Assembly (NCBI GenBank): GCA_964521295.1
Contig: CAZFRF010000001.1
Span: 398,146-462,145 of the forward strand
DNA length: 64,000 bases
Direction of reading: 5' to 3'
From: an uncultured Gammaproteobacteria bacterium
GTDB taxonomy: Bacteria > Patescibacteriota > Microgenomatia > Levybacterales > UBA12049
Shown: positions 51,045 to 63,974 of the stretch, piece after piece
How positions within the stretch are numbered: the stretch's first letter is position 1
Layout of the letters: every line of letters begins with the position of its first letter
Position numbers and translations under genes: made by a program
The notes under the pieces: model-generated
The model's database searches: none
What the model was told of the DNA's origin: nothing
What the model saw: only the letters and a program-made list of their open reading frames with translations

Positions 51045-52268
51045 CTAAAAAATATTAAATAGAGGATAAATCTTCCACAAACTTGTTATATAAATACAAT
51101 TAAAAACTACTCCTACTGCAATAAATAATAAATCATTTTTGGATAATTTAGGTGAAAGCGAAGGGATGAGAATAAGTAATAAAAATGGTAAAAAATCCAA
51201 TACATATCTATATCCATATTGAGAAAACCCAATACTATAATAAATAAGTATAGGAATTAATAAGGCAATAACTGCAATTACCGCAGAGGACGTATAAATC
51301 CCCTTTTTAAAATTAAAAAGTAGCTTTAAAAGTAATGGGGTTGTAAACCAAATTGCCATTCCCCATGGACTGGCTGATAAGTAAGGAAATTTTAAAACAA
51401 ATCCGAATTGATCGTGTGTTAAGGGTTGAGGTGCCATAACAAGCATGCTATATAAATTTGCGGGAATATGAGACAGACTCATATAACCAAAATCTAAATT
51501 ATGCGAAAGTGGAAATGCGGCCAAACTAACACTGTGTTCATAGCCTGTATCAAAAAATGAATGGAAACGAATAAAATTGTAGATTGCGAAAATTAGTATA
51601 GAAACAAAAATTGGAATTAATATTTTAAATAAATCTTTAAGTGTAAGTCTTTTTTGCCAAAATTCAAAAATAAAGAACACCAAAGCCAAAATTAAATTTG
51701 GCCTTGTTAAAAAAGAAAGACCTAGTAATACACCTACAGCTAACATTCTTTTGCTTATTAGATATTCCCTTAATGCAAAAACTATCAGCACAACACCCAA
51801 GGCTTGAACTTGATATGCAGAAATATTAATTAATGATGCAGCGAATAACACAGTTGAAAAACAGAAAAACAAAGCAATAAACAAAGCGTCAATTTTTTTA
51901 AATTTGAAAAACTTTGCAATTGAATAAACTCCCCCAAAAGAACCAATTAATGCAAATAAACCGAGTACATATTGAGGGAAATTCTTACCGAAAAAAACCA
52001 CAAACGGCATAAGCGAGATTGAGGCAAAAGGCGCATAAAACAAATAGAATTTACCATTAAATTTAGAGATATCTCCTAATGGCATTTCTTTATTAAATTC
52101 ATAAGAAACATGACCTTTTACAAATTGACTTGCCATAAGAGACAGAGAGTAATCTTTATTGTGATTTTGACTATAAATAAAAATCAATGCTGCAGAAAAA
52201 ATAGCAAAGGAGAATAAGATTAAAAAAAGACTTTTTTTATAATCTTTCAGAAAAGATAAATACTTCAC
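51045..52268 (-). CDS. polytopic membrane protein, possibly GT-C/DUF2029-like (host backbone)
   Basis: 407 aa, about 11 TM helices. Composition and architecture resemble 22861-24036. Confidence 0.35.
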   Translation of the reverse strand: MKYLSFLKDYKKSLFLILFSFAIFSAALIFIYSQNHNKDYSLSLMASQFVKGHVSYEFNKEMPLGDISKFNGKFYLFYAPFASISLMPFVVFFGKNFPQYVLGLFALIGSFGGVYSIAKFFKFKKIDALFIALFFCFSTVLFAASLINISAYQVQALGVVLIVFALREYLISKRMLAVGVLLGLSFLTRPNLILALVFFIFEFWQKRLTLKDLFKILIPIFVSILIFAIYNFIRFHSFFDTGYEHSVSLAAFPLSHNLDFGYMSLSHIPANLYSMLVMAPQPLTHDQFGFVLKFPYLSASPWGMAIWFTTPLLLKLLFNFKKGIYTSSAVIAVIALLIPILIYYSIGFSQYGYRYVLDFLPFLLLILIPSLSPKLSKNDLLFIAVGVVFNCIYITSLWKIYPLFNIF

Positions 52269-52277
52269 AGGTTAATT

Positions 52278-52772
52278 TTAACTAGTAATACACCCCATGA
52301 CAAGCCTAAAGCTTGTTTGACCAACTTCTTGAATTGAAGGATTATATGAGGCATCATACATTTTCCCAGACTCTGAGAAACTAAATCCATTTTTCGTGAA
52401 ATTAACGCCTTTAATATTTTGCCCATCCAGCACTGATGCATCGATAAATTGAGCTGTATCTCTAACTCTTACATTCAGCTTCCCCTCTCCAGCTCCTTGA
52501 ACTGTTACTAAAGGATCTAGAGGAGCAACAAATAAATCAATACCACTCAAACCAACTGTTTCTCCATTTTCTAAACCTGTTGCAAATTCCACCCAACCAG
52601 AACCATTAGCGCAATCTAACATTGCTGGATTTCCCTTAACCTCATAAGGTCTTACTGACAAAGAATTTAAGAGTGGCAGTCCCATTGCTAAAGTTAATTC
52701 TGCAGCGAATAACCCACCTGCTATTCCTGTAGCTATAACTCTCGAGGTTTTTGACTCAACAATATTTCGCAT
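52278..52772 (-). CDS. hypothetical protein
   Basis: 164 aa, Gly/Ala-rich. No motif recognised. Confidence 0.3.
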   Translation of the reverse strand: MRNIVESKTSRVIATGIAGGLFAAELTLAMGLPLLNSLSVRPYEVKGNPAMLDCANGSGWVEFATGLENGETVGLSGIDLFVAPLDPLVTVQGAGEGKLNVRVRDTAQFIDASVLDGQNIKGVNFTKNGFSFSESGKMYDASYNPSIQEVGQTSFRLVMGCITS

Positions 52773-52808
52773 GGGGGTATTATAGTTTGTCTGAGGCCAA
52801 TGTCAATA

Positions 52809-53474
52809 TTATCCAAATAACTCCATTATTGGAGTATGGAAACGATCAGTAACTAGTCTCTCAACTTCAGCAATAGTTTCCTCAATTTGACCGTCTCGAT
52901 TTGTAACCTTAAAGGGAAATTTTTCTCCAAACTGTTCAGTTAAAATTTTATCTTGAACTCTTCTTGTTTCTAAATCGCCAATTCCGTGTCTTCTACCCTC
53001 ATACCATTTTCTTTGCGTCTCATCAGATTCAGGAGTAAAGAAAATACACATAGTGCGATCAATTATTCTTTGCGCTGTTTCTGGGTCATAAGCTCTTTTA
53101 AGATGCTCAGGTAAAGTTGCTGCGCCTGAGATTTCCATTGTAGAAACTAACGATTTGCCATTCAAAACTTGCTCTAATTCTTGTTTAGTCGTGCCGTATA
53201 ATCCACCAGGGTATGATACGTACTCAACAAACTCTCCTCTTTCAACCATGCCTTCAAAAGTTACTGGAGTGACAAAATGATAGTCAACTCCATCTACCTC
53301 AGGTTTACCATCTGTTTTTGCTTCTAATCTTGGAGGCCTAGAAGTAGTTGTCACAAGTGGTCTTAAATTTGGATATTTACTCAAAAGTCTTTCTCTTGTT
53401 TCAGATTTTCCCGAAGCAGTAGGGCCTGTAAGAACAAGCAATGCGCCTAATCTTGATTCTGGAGTTATACCCAT
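52809..53474 (-). CDS. gmk: guanylate kinase
   Basis: P-loop LVLTGPTASGKSE, TTTSRPPR...DGVDYHFV, YGTTK, FFTPES lid region. Confidence 0.7.
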   Translation of the reverse strand: MGITPESRLGALLVLTGPTASGKSETRERLLSKYPNLRPLVTTTSRPPRLEAKTDGKPEVDGVDYHFVTPVTFEGMVERGEFVEYVSYPGGLYGTTKQELEQVLNGKSLVSTMEISGAATLPEHLKRAYDPETAQRIIDRTMCIFFTPESDETQRKWYEGRRHGIGDLETRRVQDKILTEQFGEKFPFKVTNRDGQIEETIAEVERLVTDRFHTPIMELFG

Positions 53475-53504
53475 AGTATGAAGATTATAGCATAATTCTT
53501 ACAA

Positions 53505-54098
53505 TTAATTAAGCTTTTGCGCTTTATTTGCTAATGAATACCAAACACCTTCATCCATAATCACATTATCTCTTACTTTTACTGTATCAACTAGCTCTTC
53601 ACCAGTGGGAAGCTCTAATTTCAATATTCCAAATGTTTCCTGGGGTTTTTTTGCTTCATTTATAGCTTGTTTAATTCCAAATGAATCAAGTTTTTGTTGA
53701 TCTTCCAGAGCACACGCTACTGCATCAACCTGATCCATGTTATTTTCAATAATTGATCTTGCAGCTGATTCTGCACCATGAGCACCAATTCTTTCTGCAA
53801 TATGCACATCCCAGCTTGTACCCGATTCTCCAGTAGCATGAGGAGCTAAGGCTGCGATAGCATTGGGTGCTATTAAAGTTGTTAAACCTAAATGATCTTC
53901 TGTTGGAATAATATCAACGCTTTGCACCTGAGTACCTGTCTCTAAAGCAGCAACTACATGCTTTGCCTCGTGTCTTGCTGTTCCATTTACAGGTTTTCTT
54001 CTCTTCAGAACTGGAACTTCCAATGAAGCTCTTGCTCCCTCTAGTACAGCAAGCGGAGGAGCTTTTATATCAATATGTCTGGGTATTTCGGCTATCAT
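53505..54098 (-). CDS. hypothetical protein with HExxH motif (possible small zinc metallopeptidase)
   Basis: HEAKH motif at residues about 43-47. No other support. Confidence 0.25.
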   Translation of the reverse strand: MIAEIPRHIDIKAPPLAVLEGARASLEVPVLKRRKPVNGTARHEAKHVVAALETGTQVQSVDIIPTEDHLGLTTLIAPNAIAALAPHATGESGTSWDVHIAERIGAHGAESAARSIIENNMDQVDAVACALEDQQKLDSFGIKQAINEAKKPQETFGILKLELPTGEELVDTVKVRDNVIMDEGVWYSLANKAQKLN

Positions 54099-54142: not shown

Positions 54143-56542
54143 TTAATCTGCTTTAAGTGGCTTAGGTGTTGCATGTAATTCTAAGTGTGAAGTTGTAAAC
54201 TCAGGCATATTTTTCCTAGGAAGTGGCTTTATAAACGCAGCATCTAGTACCTCGTCTAAATGAGTTACAAAAATAAACTTTAAGTCTTTAATTACTTCTT
54301 TTGGTACATCTTCTAAATCTTTTTTATTTTCTTTAGGCAAAATTACAGTTTTAAGACCAGCTCTATGAGCAGCTATTACCTTTTCTTTTACTCCACCAAT
54401 TTCTAAGGCTCTGCCTCTTAAAGTAATTTCTCCAGTCATACCCACAGTTCTATTGACTGGAATTTTGGTCAAAGCAGATGTAATTGCTGTAGCAATTGCA
54501 AGACCTGCTGATGGACCATCTTTTGGTACTGCGCCTTCTGGAACGTGAACATGTACGTCTACTTTTGAATAGAATTTTTCATCTAGCCCCAAAGCTCTTG
54601 CTCTTGCTCTAATATAGCTCATAGCAGCTTGACAAGATTCTTTCATAACCTCTCCAAGTTGACCAGTTAAAATAAGCTGGCCCTTACCTGGCATTAAAGC
54701 CACTTCAATAAATAATATATCTCCACCTGCTTCTGTCCAAGCAAGACCAGTTGACATACCAATCTCATCTTTTTTCTCAATTAAAGCAGAGCTTATCTTA
54801 ATTGGACCTAAAAGCTTAGGAACCATTTTTTCATCTACTATAATCTTGTCTTTTTTGCCCTCTGCTACTTTTTTAGCAATTTTTCTAAGAAGTGTAGCAA
54901 TTTGTCTTTCTAAGCTTCTAACACCAGCTTCTCTTGTGTAATGATCGATAACGAATCTAATAGCTTTATCTGTTACTTCTACGTTAGTTTCCTTAAGTCC
55001 ATGTGCTTCCATTTGTTTTTCCAAAAGAAAATCTTTAACAATTTTGAATTTCTCAAGTTGTGTATAACCAGCAAATTGGATAATTTCTAATCTATCTCTT
55101 AACGCAGGTGGAATGGTGTCTAAGACGTTGGCTGTTGTTACAAACATAACATCAGATAAATCAAATGGAACTTCTAAATAATGATCTGAGAAAGCAAAGT
55201 TTTGTTCTGGATCCAAGGCTTCAAGTAAGGCACTTGATGGATCGCCTCTAAAATCTGCACCTACTTTATCTATTTCATCAAGCATAAAGACTGGATTCTT
55301 AGTCTTTGCGTCTTTAATACCTTGAATAATTCTTCCCGGCATAGCTCCAACATAGGTTCTTCTATGTCCTCTAATTTCTGCCTCATCTCTAATACCTCCT
55401 AGGGAGACTTTAATAAATTCTCTACCTAAAGATTTAGCAATTGATTTACCAATAGATGTCTTACCAACACCAGGAGGTCCTACGAAACAAAGTATTGGTC
55501 CTTTCATCTTACCTGAGAGCTTATGAACAGCTAAATATTCTGTGATTCTTTCTTTAACTTTTTCTAAACCATAGTGATCTTTATTTAAAATCTTCTCTGC
55601 TTGCTTGATATTTACATTATTTTTACTTGTTTCATTCCAAGGCAAACTAAGCAACCAATCTAAATAGTTTCTAATATATCCTGATTCAGGATTGAATTGA
55701 TTCATTTGCGAAAGCTTTTTAATTTCTTTTTTAGCTTTCTCTTCTATCTCTTCGGGCATTTTTGCTGCTTTTAGTTTATTGTACAAATCCCTAATTTCAC
55801 TATCTTCGTCTGATTCGCCTAGTTCTTTTTCTATTGTCTTGAGTCTTTCTCTAAGCATTACTTCTCTTGCGCCCTTTTCAAATCTTTCTTGGGTTTTAGA
55901 AGCAATCTTTTTTTCTAGCTCCAATACCTTTATTTCCTTAGATAAAACTTCAATAACTTTTTCCAATCTTTCTTTAACATTGAGTTCTTCCAAGAACTCC
56001 TGCTTATCTGACGGCTTAAGATCTAATACTGAAGCAACTAAATCAGCCAACTGAGATGGCGAATTATCGCTCATAACATTCATAAATACTAAAAAGTCAA
56101 CAAATTTACCCAAATTTACTGCTCTTCTGAATTCATTTATTAAATGGTTACTTAAAGCCTTAACTTCAGCTGAATCTTCTATTGGGTCTTCTATCTCCTC
56201 AACTCTTGCCATTAGATATGGGGCGTCTTGAACGTATTCTAAGATTCTTATTCTTGAAATACCTTTAACTTGGGCATTAATTTCTCCATCGCTTTTGATC
56301 ATTCGCTCAATGTGAGAAAGTGTACCTATGGAATATAAATCAGTAGAAACCGGTTCGTTTAATTTTGCATTCTTTTGCAACACGAACCCAACAATTCTTT
56401 CCTGGCTAAATGAAGATTCTAAGGCTGCTAAACTCTTTGGTCTACCGAAGGTCAAGACCGAGTCAGTATATGGAAAAATAATTCCATCTCTAATAGGTAT
56501 AATTGGTATTATTTTGCTTACGCTCATTTCTTGTATTAGCAC
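54143..56542 (-). CDS. lon: ATP-dependent Lon protease
   Basis: Lon N-domain, AAA+ module GPPGVGKTS, and protease domain PKDGPSAG with catalytic Ser followed by the Lys region. Confidence 0.9.
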
Positions 56543-56636
56543 TCTATCATATTAGTTGCTAGATTGTCAACACTTAATTGCTGGCTTTTTTACAGGGTTG
56601 ACACGGCTCGCAATGCGAAACTACAATTAACCTATT

Positions 56637-57824
56637 ATGATATTTCTAAGCGATTTGCTTGGTAAAAACGTCTATTTCGACCGAAAAGTCTACGGAAAAA
56701 TGGTCGATTTTGCAGTACTCGAAAGCTCACCTAACCCATCAGTTTCAAAAATAGTAATTAAGAAAGGTAGTAAAAAATTTACTATTACTCCTAAGGCGCT
56801 AACCATTAAGCGCTTTGGAGGAATTCTTAATTCCAATAAAGTTCCTTTCCTTCCGTACGATGATACGGATTTTTATTTAAATGAGGACTTATTAGACAAA
56901 CAAGTCATCGATACTGACGAAAAAAAATTAGTTAGAGTTAATGATGTTGCCCTTGAAAACGAAGGGGAATTAAAAGTAGTAGGGATAGATATTGGCACTG
57001 CTGGAATACTTAGAAGACTTAGCCTAGGGAAAATAATTAAAATAGAGCCAAAAATTATCCCATGGCAAATGATCGAAGCTTTTGACTTTCATACGGGAAA
57101 CATCAAAATTAGCCTCACCCAAAATAAATTAAGCAAAATGCATCCAGGGGAACTTGCCGACATTTTAGAGGACTTGGGTAGCAAAGAAAGACTATCAGTT
57201 GTTCAAAGCTTGGACGCTAAATATGCTGCCAAGACAATTGAGGAGACCGACGAAAGAACTCAAGAAGCTATATTTGAAGAATTAAAAGGTACAGCTTTAG
57301 GCCAAATTGTTAGCGGAATGCATTCCTCTGCCTTAGCTGAAATATTCTCCAAATTAAATCCTTTAAGAATCAAGGAAATCTTAAAACTCCTAAGCAATGA
57401 GAAAGCTCAAAGAATAGAAAAGTTAATGGATTTTGGCACAGAAACAGCAGGCGGAATGATGCGGACCAGTTTTTGGAAATTTGATGGAAACCTAACGGTC
57501 AAACAAGCCTATAATGAATTATTTGAACAATCACCTAAGCCTGAGGTAATTGTAGTTACCAACGGCAATGAAAAACTAGTAGGAACAATTAATACTAAAG
57601 ACATGCTAGATAGCGACTCGCTTGCTATCTTAAAAGACATTGTGAGTGAAAGAAAATTTGTTTACCCAACAGTTGGAATTAATGAATTGATATTTTTATT
57701 TGCAAAATACAATCTTAGACTTATTCCCGTTGTTGATAAAGATAAAAAGCCAATCGGCGTTGTAAAAATTGACAGATTACTAGAAAAAATCGAAGAAAGG
57801 ATAAAAGAAGATGAATTTATTTAG
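56637..57824 (+). CDS. cytosolic PRC-barrel + MgtE N-domain + CBS-pair protein with no transmembrane domain
   Basis: MgtE_N-like ELADILEDLGSKERLSVVQSLDAKYAAKTIEE, then tandem CBS. There is no TM segment. Its stop overlaps the start of the next gene by 14 nt. Confidence 0.55.
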   Translation: MIFLSDLLGKNVYFDRKVYGKMVDFAVLESSPNPSVSKIVIKKGSKKFTITPKALTIKRFGGILNSNKVPFLPYDDTDFYLNEDLLDKQVIDTDEKKLVRVNDVALENEGELKVVGIDIGTAGILRRLSLGKIIKIEPKIIPWQMIEAFDFHTGNIKISLTQNKLSKMHPGELADILEDLGSKERLSVVQSLDAKYAAKTIEETDERTQEAIFEELKGTALGQIVSGMHSSALAEIFSKLNPLRIKEILKLLSNEKAQRIEKLMDFGTETAGGMMRTSFWKFDGNLTVKQAYNELFEQSPKPEVIVVTNGNEKLVGTINTKDMLDSDSLAILKDIVSERKFVYPTVGINELIFLFAKYNLRLIPVVDKDKKPIGVVKIDRLLEKIEERIKEDEFI

Positions 57825-59076
57825 TAGAATAAAAAACAAATTTATATTTTTAGTTCCAATCCTAGCAATCTTAGGCCCAGGGATAATTGCTGGAAACGCA
57901 GATAATGACGCCGGAGGAATTACGACCTACTCTGTGGCGGGAGCAAATTATGGATTATCCTTACTGTGGGTTTTACTACTTACTACTTTCGCCTTGGCAA
58001 TAACCCAAGAAATTGGAGCCAGGATGGGACTTGTTACTGGTAAAGGACTTGCTTCACTTATTCGTGAGAAATTCGGACTCAGATGGACAGCATTCATAAT
58101 GGTATGTTTATTTATTGCAAATATGGGTACTATTGCTGCAGAATTTGCAGGCATTGCCACAGCTATGAGTATCTTCAATATCCCAAGATTCGTATCTGTA
58201 CCAATCGCAGCAATCACCGTGTTTTTACTCGTAACTAAAGGTAATTTTAAGAAACTGGAAAGACTTTTTCTAATTCTTTCATCTTTTTATCTTTCATATA
58301 TTGTCTCTGCAATTCTTGCACGTCCAAATTTTGGAGAAGCGATTCATAGCCTAGTATCACCTGAAATCGGCACGCTCTCTCCTTCATATATTCTAATGAT
58401 CATGGCTTTGGTCGGAACAACTATCACCCCTTGGGGACAATTTTTCATTCAAGATTATGTAGTAGATAAAAAATTAACTAAGGAAGATTTAAAAATTGAA
58501 AGAGGGGATGTTTTCTTTGGAAGTTTCTTCACAAACTTTATCTCTTTCTTTATTATTGTTGCCTGCGCAACGACTCTTTTTGCAAAGGGAATACATATAA
58601 CTGACGCTAGCCAAGCAGCTCAGGCATTACAACCTCTGGCTGGAGAGTTTGCTAAGACACTCTTTGCTTTCGGATTCTTAAACGCATCAATCTTTGGAGC
58701 GGCCATCGTTCCAATTACTACCGCTTATGTTATTACTCAAGCTTTTGGGATGGAATCAGGCTTAAACTATTCATTTAAACAAGCACCAGAATTCTATGGA
58801 ATTTTTTTGATGCTACTTATCCTTGGAGGACTTATGGTAGTACTTCCTTTCCTACCTTTAATTACAATTTTAGTCGTCACTCAAGCAGTAAATGCAGTAC
58901 TGCTTATTCCAATCTTTATTTTTATCTACCTACTATCAAATGACAGAAAATTATTAGGTCAATATGCAAATAACAGGTTAATAAATATAATTGTAATCGT
59001 TACTTTAATAGGAATCTCAGTGGCATCAACTATCTACATGATTTCTCTTTTTGCTCCTAATCTTCTAACTTTTTAA
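57811..59076 (+). CDS. NRAMP-related divalent cation transporter with non-canonical metal site (NRMT-like, possibly Mg2+)
   Basis: NRAMP TM1 region GPGIIAGNADNDAGG (DPGN becomes DAGG) and TM6 GTTITPW (MPH becomes TPW). About 11 TM helices. Confidence 0.55.
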   Translation: MNLFSRIKNKFIFLVPILAILGPGIIAGNADNDAGGITTYSVAGANYGLSLLWVLLLTTFALAITQEIGARMGLVTGKGLASLIREKFGLRWTAFIMVCLFIANMGTIAAEFAGIATAMSIFNIPRFVSVPIAAITVFLLVTKGNFKKLERLFLILSSFYLSYIVSAILARPNFGEAIHSLVSPEIGTLSPSYILMIMALVGTTITPWGQFFIQDYVVDKKLTKEDLKIERGDVFFGSFFTNFISFFIIVACATTLFAKGIHITDASQAAQALQPLAGEFAKTLFAFGFLNASIFGAAIVPITTAYVITQAFGMESGLNYSFKQAPEFYGIFLMLLILGGLMVVLPFLPLITILVVTQAVNAVLLIPIFIFIYLLSNDRKLLGQYANNRLINIIVIVTLIGISVASTIYMISLFAPNLLTF

Positions 59077-59113: not shown

Positions 59114-59512
59114 CTATTTTTCTTCTTTAAAATTAAGCGCACAAGAGTTAATACAATATCTAAGACCAGTTGTTTCCTTGGGCCCATCACTAAACAAATG
59201 CCCCAAATGAGATCCGCAATTTCTACATACAACTTCTGTTCTATGCATTCCATATGAATTATCATCTTGTAGAATAATATTTTCTGTATTGACTGGATTA
59301 TCAAAGCTTGGCCAACCTGTACCAGAATCAAATTTAGTACTTGATGCAAAAAGCTTTTGGCCACAGGCTGCGCATTCATACATACCAGATTTATGATTAT
59401 CATAAAGGTGTCCTGAGAATGCTGGCTCAGTACCCTTTTCTCGCAATACTTTATATTGCTCGGGGGTTAGTTTTTTCTTCCAATCTGCATCTGTCATTTG
59501 TTTTGTATCCAT
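59114..59512 (-). CDS. msrB: peptide-methionine (R)-S-oxide reductase
   Basis: Two CxxC zinc motifs ([16 protein letters not shown]) and the SelR signature GWPSF...RTEVVC. Confidence 0.85.
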
Positions 59513-61186: not shown

Positions 61187-61684
61187 CTACAGCAAGAAGA
61201 TGAAACCAATTCCTAAAATCGCAATTGCAACACCTATGATACCAAAACTTAATAGGTTATTTGGTCCAGTTTCAGGAATACTTCCAGCTCCCTTAACATT
61301 AGTGCTTAGCGTTTGTGACCAAGGACCATAAGAGCAGTTGTTTACTGCTCTAACCTTAAAGAAATAATTGGTTTTAGGAAATAAATCATGAACAACATAC
61401 TTAACTGCTCCATCAAGTATACCCATATTTACAACAGTTGAATATGCGTCAGCTGAGCTAGTTAATCCGTAAGAAATTACATACCCTGTAAAAGTTGATT
61501 TAGGTTGAGCAAAATATAATGTCGCAGAAGTACTACTGTAATTTATTTGGTACAAATTTGGAGCATCAGTTGGAGTCTCATAGCTACAATTGTCATCTGC
61601 CAATACCACACGAGGAGTTAAACCTAGCAAGAAAATAAAAGCTAAGGTTACAAAACCTGCCACAAAAAGTTTAAAAGGTTTCAT
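61187..61684 (-). CDS. cell-surface protein with fibronectin type III-like domain and C-terminal PETG-type sorting/anchor signal
   Basis: Signal peptide, an Fn3-like beta domain, then SIPETGPNN followed by a TM helix and a short basic tail. Confidence 0.45.
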   Translation of the reverse strand: MKPFKLFVAGFVTLAFIFLLGLTPRVVLADDNCSYETPTDAPNLYQINYSSTSATLYFAQPKSTFTGYVISYGLTSSADAYSTVVNMGILDGAVKYVVHDLFPKTNYFFKVRAVNNCSYGPWSQTLSTNVKGAGSIPETGPNNLLSFGIIGVAIAILGIGFIFLL

Positions 61685-61787: not shown

Positions 61788-63974
61788 TTAGAAAAGAAAT
61801 ATTCTTAAAGTTCTTAATCTATCTTTGAGTGAAATTTTTGACAAAAAAAGCTTTGATACATACTCTCTTTTTCTATAAATTCTAAGGAGTGAATAAACAC
61901 TGATCACAAATAATAAAAAAATGAAATATGTTATTTCTCTTGTTTGACGAGCAACCCTAACAGTCTTATTAAGATTCATCGCCCCCAAAACACTTGGGGG
62001 TTCATTATTTGTTAATAGAGTATTTATAGGTACATCTAAAATATTAAATGAACTTTCTGCCTCTGCTGAAACACTATGATTATCTGGTCCCACATTCCCT
62101 TCAACTAAAGCAACTGCTAAATATTTACCGTCTACTGCATCTTTAGACAATACTAAACCTGTAGAAAGCTTTGCGGTCTTCCCCGATGGAATATCTCCAA
62201 TATCAAATATTCCTCCGCCCATTGATTTACCATCTTTAACTAAATAAAGTTTTAGTTTTGTACCATATACTTTTCCTGCGCCTGAATTTTTAACTTTTAC
62301 AAAAAAAGTTACTGTATCTCCAGGATAAACATATTGACCTACATTATTTGTTTGCTCAACGCTAAGCAATCCTCCCTCTTCTTGTTTTGCATTTTCTTCA
62401 CTTTTTCCACTATCGATCTCTGTCTGATTATTGTGCTCAGTAGGTGCTTTATTATCTAATGCATCAAACTCAGTTTTTCCACCAATATCTCCCGCCCAAT
62501 CACCAAAGATATTTAAAAAACCAAAAAAACCTACTGAATTTATAAAATTTGCATTCACAAAATTCACTAACGAAACAGCACTATATGCATTCCCAGTATT
62601 AATACTCCCTTTCCCATTGACTAAATTTTGCCCTGTATTTGCATAAGAGGAAATATTATTCTCTACGTACGCACTATTATAGATAGTTAAATCTCCAACG
62701 CATGAGGTACAATTACTTGAATCTTCAGGCAAAAGCCCACCTGATGAAAAAAATGAAAGATTTGATCCTCCCGATTCCTTTACAAATCCATTCCATCCGA
62801 TAAAGTCACCTAGCCAATTCCCGACTAAATTAATAAACAAACCATATACACTTGTATTTACATAATTTGCATTAATTAAATTTAAATTATTTACAATTGA
62901 AGCAGCGTTACCACTATCTATTGTCCCATTACCTTTGATAGTATTTTGCCCACTGTTTGCAGAGGAATCTATATTATTAACAACTGTTGCATTGTTTTCT
63001 GCTACTAGTGACATTCCGCATTCAACACAAGAACTGGTTTTTATATCTGGAAGAATTATATTGCCATTTAATTTTCCAAAAACATTTATCGAAACAACAT
63101 GAACCACTGAATTTACGATTGTAAAATTAACTTTATTTAAAAGCGATACAATTGAATAGGCATCGCCCGTATTAACAATTGCTTTAAGATCAGATTCTCC
63201 AGAATTTATAGAATTTTGCCCTGTATTTGCATAAGATATTGCATTATTTGAAACAAAAGCATAATTTTCTAAATTTGTAAAAGAAACATTTATTATTTGA
63301 TCATCAGGATGATCTTGAATCATTGATGATGCTACTTCAAAAGGATCAGAAAGGTTTAAATCTCCAGATTGATCAATAAATATATTAACTGTCTGATAAA
63401 CCACCTGAGAATTAACCGAATTTGTATTTACCGAATTATCAAGTATTGTTTCAGACAAAGCATTACCACTTTGAATCTCTCCTCCCTGAAACTCTTCTAC
63501 TGTACATGAATTATCATTTTCATTAGAAACAGGAACCATTGATGCTGCAACAGATGCAATGACATTCTGCCCAGTATTACTATCTGAATTAATGTTGTTA
63601 TTTATTTCTCCATTATTTACCAAGCTTACTGAACTAGACTCTGAATTATGAATACTCTCAAATGATGAAGACGTTGAATTTTCAGCATCTTCCTGATCAG
63701 TCTCTAAAGGTTGATCCACAGGTGTATCTTGCACTATTTCACTTGTTTGACTTAATGGATTCATTACTGCTTCTTCAACAGGAGAAGGTGTTGGCGTTAA
63801 ATCAATAATATTCTCTCCAGTATTGGAAACCGTTTGTGTATTAGTTTCTAATATTGCATTATTCTGCTCTGTTATTGTTGGCTCTAAATTCGGAGCCTCT
63901 GTTGCTACTTGAGGAACATCGGATTCTATTTCATCAGCAAATGCAATCCTTGGTACTAAGATATTATTTAGCAT
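61788..63974 (-). CDS. large cell-surface repeat protein (four NTGQN-containing repeats of about 65 aa) with C-terminal TM anchor
   Basis: Repeats begin SYANTGQN and continue with N/S/G-rich stretches with conserved spacing. A beta-rich domain follows, then a C-terminal hydrophobic anchor. Confidence 0.5.
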   Translation of the reverse strand: MLNNILVPRIAFADEIESDVPQVATEAPNLEPTITEQNNAILETNTQTVSNTGENIIDLTPTPSPVEEAVMNPLSQTSEIVQDTPVDQPLETDQEDAENSTSSSFESIHNSESSSVSLVNNGEINNNINSDSNTGQNVIASVAASMVPVSNENDNSCTVEEFQGGEIQSGNALSETILDNSVNTNSVNSQVVYQTVNIFIDQSGDLNLSDPFEVASSMIQDHPDDQIINVSFTNLENYAFVSNNAISYANTGQNSINSGESDLKAIVNTGDAYSIVSLLNKVNFTIVNSVVHVVSINVFGKLNGNIILPDIKTSSCVECGMSLVAENNATVVNNIDSSANSGQNTIKGNGTIDSGNAASIVNNLNLINANYVNTSVYGLFINLVGNWLGDFIGWNGFVKESGGSNLSFFSSGGLLPEDSSNCTSCVGDLTIYNSAYVENNISSYANTGQNLVNGKGSINTGNAYSAVSLVNFVNANFINSVGFFGFLNIFGDWAGDIGGKTEFDALDNKAPTEHNNQTEIDSGKSEENAKQEEGGLLSVEQTNNVGQYVYPGDTVTFFVKVKNSGAGKVYGTKLKLYLVKDGKSMGGGIFDIGDIPSGKTAKLSTGLVLSKDAVDGKYLAVALVEGNVGPDNHSVSAEAESSFNILDVPINTLLTNNEPPSVLGAMNLNKTVRVARQTREITYFIFLLFVISVYSLLRIYRKREYVSKLFLSKISLKDRLRTLRIFLF

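Follow-up and report, generated by a model that had tools for sequence, protein, structure and literature searches.

An operon of an MgtE-like cytoplasmic partner and an NRMT-clade transporter in a Levybacteria-like genome

Why would a carrier of the NRAMP family be encoded together with the cytoplasmic sensor module of MgtE, a Mg2+ channel of another fold? The question is raised by two overlapping genes in a 64,000-nucleotide (nt) stretch of contig CAZFRF010000001.1 (assembly GCA_964521295.1, positions 398,146 to 462,145, forward strand; hereafter the window), in which an open reading frame (ORF) for a cytoplasmic partner protein, ORF A, runs into one for an NRMT-clade divalent cation transporter related to NRAMP, ORF B. 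Together they form a bicistronic, self-contained operon of the known "MgtE-like fragment plus NrmT/NRMT" type, carried by a Levybacteria-like genome of the candidate phyla radiation. The pair as such was already published in 2014, and the NRMT family has solved structures. The best overall explanation, which we regard as on balance probable, is an NRMT operon in which ORF A is a cytoplasmic regulatory subunit.

Linkage of the partner and NRMT genes

Scanning one genome per species, we collected 80 NRMT loci, of which three had no upstream DNA and 77 were informative. A homologue of ORF A, hereafter the partner, lies upstream on the same strand in 75/77 of these loci and is directly adjacent in 73, with a median gap of ~20 nt; these loci come from Patescibacteria, Chloroflexota, Actinomycetota, Syntrophales, Armatimonadota, Nitrospirota and Bacillota. 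In the opposite direction, metagenomes were scanned with an eight-sequence alignment, which returned 80 partner loci (76 informative) with an NRMT gene directly downstream in 69/76. The pairing of partner and NRMT is near-universal in both directions and extends over many phyla. An earlier note on these genes had proposed such a co-occurrence survey and had counted a lack of synteny in other genomes among its refuting outcomes, and synteny holds on both sides. Its remark that it knew of no described example did not survive, as Shin et al. 2014 (PLoS Genet 10:e1004429, PMC4072509) named the NrmT group and described most nrmT genes as adjoining a gene for the MgtE cytoplasmic domain ("mgtE-nramp operons", their Fig. 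S5).

In phmmer searches ORF A matched the partners of Chloroflexota, Actinomycetota, Syntrophales and others over residues 1-385 with E values of 1e-32 to 1e-54, and the family comprises 266 clusters at 50% identity (E<=1e-30). Among 62 complete partners MgtE_N and CBS domains were detected in all 62, and a PRC domain (Pfam) in 58. Partner genes without a downstream NRMT were seen at loci L085, L093, L103, L120, L150, L152 and L156; the related loci L120, L150 and L152 have a convergent malate/lactate dehydrogenase gene in its place, and L085 a histidine kinase. Elsewhere the layout is extended: the partner, a full-length MgtE and an NRMT follow in a row on one strand at L049:1226-5260, and at L033:1416-5236 an M-box riboswitch lies upstream of a partner followed by two tandem NRAMP-family genes, one of them between partner and NRMT. 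At L058:2672-3914 (Actinomycetes) the partner occupies two overlapping ORFs behind an M-box, which could reflect a frameshift or a real split, and which recalls the split partner of C. acetobutylicum reported by Shin et al.

In the window the two genes share 14 nt, the start codon of ORF B lying inside ORF A (Table 1), and this stop/start overlap implies co-transcription and probable translational coupling. ORF calls and the sequence itself confirm both the gene coordinates and the overlap given in the earlier note. The same overlap recurs in Levybacteria-like relatives (for example L001, L003-L005, L007-L009, L011, L081 and L082), and the nearest relatives of both proteins are from Candidatus Levybacteria or Patescibacteria. 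Upstream of ORF A, a consensus scan together with the sequence placed the end of the -10 hexamer of a putative promoter only 9 nt before the ATG, so that the 5' leader would be very short or absent, with no room for a riboswitch, and the operon mRNA may be leaderless or nearly so. Rfam models gave only chance-level matches for an M-box or any other family upstream of ORF A (56200-57000, E<=10), and at the Rfam gathering score the whole window contained no M-box and no family besides one tRNA.

M-boxes are present in relatives. Rfam detected the M-box (RF00380, 107-143 bits) just upstream of the partner gene in 5/18 loci (L016:420-588, L027:1930-2134, L029:2461-2631, L034:2477-2653 and L076:2197-2357), and a profile built from these found it in 18/160 loci, always upstream of the partner gene and not of the transporter gene. 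The M-box loci are mostly from Actinomycetota, with at least one from Bacillota (L076), and none was found at any Patescibacteria locus tested. All ten M-box-controlled NRMTs in the genome set carry the same TxxT variant of the metal site as ORF B, an association that is confounded by lineage because of this predominance of Actinomycetota.

The transporter and its partner

ORF B matches the Pfam Nramp model (PF01566, E 2e-92) over positions 1-356 of 357, and the closest solved structure is EleNRMT (7QIA; E 5.2e-99, 335 bits, 42% identity over ~386 residues), whereas canonical Mn/Fe NRAMPs reach E values of 1e-11 to 1e-28 and at most 101 bits (DraNramp ~5e-23). Correspondence with the canonical metal-site motifs was taken from alignments to DraNramp (PDB 8e5s/8e6i), whose sixth transmembrane helix (TM6) there reads A-T-V-M-P-H. 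The published NRMT signature is DxxG-TxxA/T, as opposed to the canonical A/CxxM in TM6 (Ramanadane et al. 2022, PMC8806188), and the DxxG and TxxT of ORF B, which mark an enlarged site with hard ligands, fit it exactly. Judged by its sequence, ORF B is almost certainly an NRMT-clade member of the NRAMP/SLC11 family. The earlier note had described an NRMT-like transporter with Asn to Gly in TM1 and with Met to Thr and His to Trp in TM6, and both the assignment and the substitutions stand after alignment to DraNramp and EleNRMT, which did not restore the canonical ligands.

Around the metal site N32, D33 and G36 are invariant across 80 homologues of ORF B, and the residues D55, G58, T224, Q379 and E133 of EleNRMT have their equivalents in D33, G36, T203, Q358 and E111. 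T206 occupies the position of the canonical Met, at which EleNRMT has Ala, and among the 80 NRMT homologues this position is Thr in 47 and Ala in 33, in a sample biased by the search pattern. The view that Thr at this position is an unusual feature was rejected, as TxxT lies within the published signature (PMC8806188) and is the majority state in this sample. Of the proton-pathway residues of DraNramp, H232, the first His of the pathway, is replaced by W208, H237 by I213, D131 by I108 and E124 by F101, with E134 kept as E111; both TM6b His residues and the acidic residues of TM3 are therefore replaced in ORF B. EleNRMT shows the same loss of the proton pathway and is H+-independent, and its T224 is needed for Mg2+ transport, which is abolished when this residue is lost (PMC8806188). 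By homology to EleNRMT, ORF B would carry Mg2+ without proton coupling, and we infer an uncoupled carrier, driven by the potential, that imports largely hydrated Mg2+ and probably also Mn2+.

ORF A, a soluble protein, has the domain order PRC-PRC-MgtE_N-CBS-CBS and no membrane domain. Using phmmer it matched the cytosolic domains of MgtE from E. faecalis (E 1e-17) and T. thermophilus (TtMgtE; E 2e-13). The MgtE membrane domain (PF01769) was not detected in ORF A, and the mgtE model TIGR00400 stayed at 102 bits, below its cutoff of 232.75, and covered model positions 19-258 of 450 only, which together indicate that ORF A is not an MgtE channel. Pfam scored only the second CBS repeat (341-386, E 2.7e-11), with the complete pair given by the AlphaFold model and the MgtE alignments. 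The AlphaFold2 model, built on a 55-sequence alignment, comprises two barrels, a CBS pair and, between them, a helical domain (162-263), at a mean predicted local distance difference test (pLDDT) score of 78.8 and a predicted template modelling (pTM) score of 0.42. Its best Foldseek matches in the PDB were MgtE cytosolic domains (E ~1e-15), with only the MgtE and CBS parts recovered. With this pTM and a root-mean-square deviation of ~15 A the placement of the domains is unreliable, and the model allows no conclusion on how the barrels pack. Pfam, TIGR00400, phmmer and the AlphaFold and Foldseek comparisons all agree with the earlier note's reading of the upstream gene as an MgtE cytoplasmic module lacking its pore; as for the architecture it gave, the PRC, MgtE_N and CBS-pair domains are present, but the N-terminus holds two tandem barrels, not one.

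This tandem module of PRC-like barrels, ~160 residues long, precedes MgtE_N in essentially all partners and is new relative to the 2014 description; a full-text search found no paper combining a PRC barrel with MgtE in the library covered. Barrel 1 gave no Pfam match in the window protein alone, and the corresponding region of relatives does match PRC (as in residues 1-74 of L061, E 1.2e-11). The profiles of the two barrels are weakly related (hhalign E 1.4e-4, probability 53%). Barrel 1 has G20 and D24 as conserved residues, and barrel 2 shows the densest conservation in the partner, with 14 columns at >=90% within 79 residues, mostly polar and including D87, Q89, D92, R100, V101, N102, D103, D118, R126, R127 and W143. 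Its signature reads LLDKQ(I/V)(I/V)D..G.K..RVND, followed by GxLRRLG and I.W. PRC barrels serve elsewhere as protein-interaction modules, for example in RimM and in the reaction-centre H subunit. Some JGI annotations call the partner a transcriptional regulator; this was rejected, as no DNA-binding domain was found in it.

At its C-terminus ORF A stops five residues past the second CBS domain (KEDEFI), where the MgtE plug helix would start, and has no plug helix. E391, D392 and E393 give the Levybacteria-type partner an acidic tail (57807-57821), which phmmer pairs with the plug-helix ligands E258/D259 of MgtE; partners of most other phyla have a longer tail, with Lys or Arg at these positions.

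We mapped the ligand positions of TtMgtE by alignment onto 62 members of the partner family and ORF A, taking the Mg2+ ligands from Maruyama et al. 2018 (PMC5882242) and the ATP-binding residues Y170, R187, D188, N203 and F227 from Tomita et al. 2017 (PMC5529423). Among the Mg2+ ligands, D95 (Mg6) is Asp in 58/62 members and E235 in the window, E59 (Mg7) is acidic in 47/62 and K199 in the window, and D250 (Mg5) is acidic in 48/62 and E383 in the window. The position of D247 (Mg4) is Asp in 35/62 (window R380), that of D91 (Mg4) in 31/62 (window S231) and that of D226 (Mg5) in 3/62 (window N359). For ATP, R187 is Arg or Lys in 57/62 (window K321), D188 is Asp or Glu in 50/62 (window D322) and Y170 is Tyr in 48/62 and deleted in the window; the stacking residue F227 is Leu in 45/62 and in the window (L360), and N203 is variable in the family (window S337). 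With ligand conservation this incomplete, Mg2+ sensing by the partner is plausible for the family and weaker for ORF A itself, and ATP sensing is doubtful.

Some relatives of the partner are longer, at ~600-630 residues, and have at the C-terminus a membrane domain with homology to the pore of MgtE; one of them, P0152, is 37% identical to TtMgtE over 422 residues (E 2e-79). These matches had been considered as partner-NRMT fusions, which was rejected, as they are partners with an MgtE-type membrane domain. When the pore motifs were scored (GGNTGxQ and the Asp matching TtMgtE D432), P0271 was found with both intact and no NRMT neighbour (L161:3001-4863), and P0173 had lost them, with PF01769 still detected and again no NRMT neighbour (L166:2615-4429). 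P0152 has also lost them, PF01769 being weak, and has an NRMT directly downstream (L162:611-2410), and in P0186, P0263 and the L061 partner the pore is no longer recognisable and an NRMT lies 8-24 nt downstream (L163:792-2657, L164:3001-4809, L165:1347-3155 and L061:2021-3916). Where the pore motifs are lost an NRMT thus usually follows directly, with L166 as the exception, and the intact pore (L161) stands without an NRMT neighbour. Closest to EleNRMT in the set (59% identity) are the NRMTs of L061 and L163, which have the membrane-anchored type of partner. The partner family probably descends from a PRC-bearing MgtE; its pore would have decayed and later disappeared wherever conduction passed to an NRMT. 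Such a history would put the partner at the membrane, beside the transporter.

Proposed regulation of the transporter and competing explanations

For the MgtE-like fragment Shin et al. proposed either cytoplasmic feedback regulation of transport or a metal chaperone activity (PMC4072509); the later NRMT papers searched do not address the partner. That the partner regulates NRMT, by binding and throttling it, is in our judgement an even call. ORF A would bind ORF B from the cytoplasmic side, with the highly conserved PRC barrel 2 as the most plausible contact, and would lower its transport when the cytoplasmic divalent cation (Mg2+) is sufficient, a brake of the kind that the channels MgtE and CorA have built in as cytoplasmic domains. 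A Mg2+ carrier without coupling would require a brake of this sort, for which the partner is the obvious candidate, and, with no M-box in the window operon, control at the protein level would be its sole evident Mg2+-responsive element. The family is linked to Mg2+ by the M-boxes upstream of relatives, the MgtE neighbour at L049 and the part of the MgtE ligand set that is kept. Action at the membrane is favoured by the partner variants with a decayed MgtE membrane domain directly upstream of an NRMT (L061 and L162-L165), in contrast to L161.

Several observations weigh against this explanation. The NrmT of C. acetobutylicum is functional without its partner, and co-expression of the A. capsulatum partner, the single experiment on partner function that we found on record, left rescue unchanged; furthermore, the A. 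capsulatum NrmT, the sole riboswitch-less member tested, behaved as a Mn2+ transporter (all PMC4072509). Purified EleNRMT, too, transports alone (PMC8806188). In the surveys 2/77 NRMT loci (L021 and L080) had no nearby partner and ~9% of the partner genes (7/76) had no adjacent NRMT, and no partner-NRMT fusion was found among the 150 best representatives of the partner family. Within ORF A only two of the six N-domain and CBS Mg2+-ligand positions of TtMgtE are acidic (E235 and E383), the Mg5 ligand D226 is lost across the family, and the plug helix, which transmits gating in MgtE, is absent.

In a rival reading of the same operon, the physiological substrate would be Mn2+, or another transition metal, and the partner would respond to that metal, which we consider unlikely but take seriously. 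The A. capsulatum NrmT, which is likewise paired with an MgtE-like partner and lacks an M-box, gave full rescue of a mutant in Mn2+ uptake and only weak rescue of a Mg2+ mutant, and by the account of Shin et al. only a subset of NrmT proteins are likely high-affinity Mg2+ transporters (PMC4072509); EleNRMT carries Mn2+ as well as Mg2+, and the window operon, too, is without an M-box. The metal site of ORF B argues for Mg2+, as the soft Met ligand is replaced by Thr and T203, the equivalent of EleNRMT T224, is present, as does the origin of the partner from a Mg2+ channel; the TxxT state of all ten M-box-controlled NRMTs points the same way, subject to its confounding by lineage. The signal, rather than the substrate, may also differ, in that the partner would regulate NRMT with its CBS pair sensing an adenine nucleotide or another small ligand, and so the energy state, in place of free Mg2+. 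CBS pairs often bind adenosine ligands, the Foldseek neighbours of the model include CBS proteins bound to ATP, AMP or c-di-AMP, and the CBS domain of TtMgtE binds ATP (PMC5529423); the family mostly keeps the R187, D188 and Y170 positions, and its Mg2+-ligand set is incomplete. We nonetheless think a nucleotide signal rather improbable, as the F227A mutant of TtMgtE lost ATP binding and Leu predominates at that position in the family and occupies it in the window, Y170 is deleted in ORF A, N203 is variable, and M-box control, which recurs in operons of this type, is a pointer to Mg2+.

The partner might instead be no gate at all; it could act as a metallochaperone, as a factor for assembly or stability, or as an adaptor that connects NRMT with some other component. 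The most conserved surface of the partner lies in PRC barrel 2 and not at the MgtE Mg2+ sites, and PRC barrels mediate protein interaction in other proteins. Transporters of the NRMT clade also work without the partner in heterologous hosts, and a chaperone is the alternative offered by Shin et al. (PMC4072509). The MgtE_N and CBS unit, in MgtE the sensor for gating, has nevertheless been kept in all 62 complete partners over wide phylogenetic distances, together with acidic residues at the D95, E59 and D250 positions, and we hold a non-gating role to be quite improbable. That the two genes are chance neighbours, or share a promoter and no functional relationship, is hardly credible: the few unpaired partner and NRMT genes would allow it, but same-strand adjacency is reciprocal (97% and 91%) across many phyla without conservation of the other neighbours, the overlap of stop and start has been conserved, and in relatives one M-box controls both genes.

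Within the reading of ORF A as a regulatory subunit, a more specific scenario can be put forward tentatively, with odds that we place a little short of even. The partner would be a detachable gating module from a PRC-bearing MgtE that exchanged its pore for the LeuT-fold carrier NRMT, docks through PRC barrel 2 and exerts Mg2+-dependent feedback in trans, with L061 and L162-L165 as intermediates of the swap. If this is true, a single sensor domain has been re-used, so that it controls two kinds of transporter with unrelated folds. The conserved patch on PRC barrel 2 and the availability of both soluble and membrane-anchored partners offer concrete targets for binding and gating work, and a subunit may have been absent from the published in vitro work, which used NRMT by itself. 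For a reduced genome of ~0.9 Mb the operon could be a main route of Mg2+ supply.

Other features of the window and comparison with known systems

The features of the operon and the other genes mentioned are collected in Table 1.

Table 1. Window coordinates of the operon, its domains and motifs, and other features
Feature	Position	Strand	Remarks
Sigma-70-like promoter, putative	56598..56627	+	TTGACA, 18 nt, TACAAT; 11/12 matches, consensus scan only
ORF A, cytoplasmic partner protein	56637..57824	+	395 residues; ATG start, TAG stop at 57822-57824
PRC-like barrel 1, residues 1-72	56637..56852	+	six strands, pLDDT 80-91 (AlphaFold2)
PRC barrel 2, residues 80-158	56874..57110	+	Pfam PRC (PF05239), 26.7 bits (cutoff 21.2)
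MgtE_N helical domain, residues 168-266	57138..57434	+	Pfam E 8.9e-19; aligns to the N domains of TtMgtE and E. faecalis MgtE
CBS pair, residues ~270-390	57444..57806	+	AlphaFold model and MgtE alignments
AGGA, Shine-Dalgarno-like site for ORF B (predicted)	57798..57801	+	inside ORF A, 9 nt before the ATG at 57811
Overlap of ORF A end and ORF B start	57811..57824	+	14 nt; ORF B ATG inside ORF A
ORF B, NRMT-clade NRAMP-related divalent cation transporter	57811..59076	+	421 residues, ATG start
TM1 metal-site motif D33-A-G-G36	57907-57918	+	canonical D-P-G-N; EleNRMT D55...G58; translation-checked
TM6 metal-site motif T203-T-I-T206-P-W208	58417-58434	+	canonical A-x-x-M-P-H; translation-checked
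Lon protease gene	54143..56542	-	operon flank, divergent
msrB	59114..59512	-	operon flank, convergent
Group of four ORFs	51045-54098	-	three (407, 164 and 197 residues) without Pfam match
Guanylate-kinase-like protein	52809-53474	-	fourth ORF of this group
Small fibronectin-type-III protein	61187-61684	-	C-terminal anchor; adjoins the 728-residue ORF
728-residue ORF	61788-63974	-	no Pfam match

The GC content of the window is ~31-36%. The 728-residue ORF contains many repeats of the form ..S.ANTGQN.I..G.A.S..N..N.. and ends in a hydrophobic stretch. Because of this stretch, the anchor of the adjoining protein and its fibronectin-type-III domain, the two may be cell-surface proteins.

Of the known systems, the operons of Shin et al. 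(C. acetobutylicum CA_C0685/CA_C3329 and A. capsulatum ACP_2976/2977) are like that of the window in having the partner upstream and a transporter of the same clade downstream on the same strand, with a partner that consists of MgtE_N and CBS domains and has no pore. The window operon is also without an M-box, as in A. capsulatum. It differs in its Levybacteria-like candidate phyla radiation genome and in the 14-nt overlap of its genes, and the tandem PRC-barrel module seen in nearly all partners here is not mentioned in the part of the 2014 paper considered.

Among single proteins, EleNRMT of Eggerthella lenta (PDB 7QIA/7QIC/7QJI/7QJJ; Ramanadane et al. 2022, eLife 11:e74589) shares with ORF B a Trp in place of the first TM6 His and differs at the Met position, where it has Ala and ORF B has Thr, both within TxxA/T. 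EleNRMT was studied alone; its nearest relatives in our sample (L061 and L163) stand with a membrane-anchored partner of ~620-630 residues, whereas ORF A is soluble. Like the canonical NRAMP/MntH proteins (DraNramp, ScaDMT and EcoDMT), ORF B has the PF01566 domain, the LeuT fold and the metal-binding Asp of TM1; unlike them it has DAGG for DPGN and TxxTPW for AxxMPH, and lacks the proton pathway. ORF A in turn resembles T. thermophilus MgtE (PDB 2YVX/2ZY9; cytosolic domain 2YVY) in its homologous N domain and CBS pair (E 1e-13 to 1e-17) and in keeping part of the acidic Mg2+ sites, and cytoplasmic Mg2+ sensing is a plausible shared role. It differs from TtMgtE in the loss of D226 of Mg5, in non-acidic residues at the ligand positions of Mg4 and Mg7 and in having Leu for the ATP-stacking Phe, and, in place of the plug helix and five-helix membrane domain of MgtE, it has two added PRC barrels at its N-terminus.

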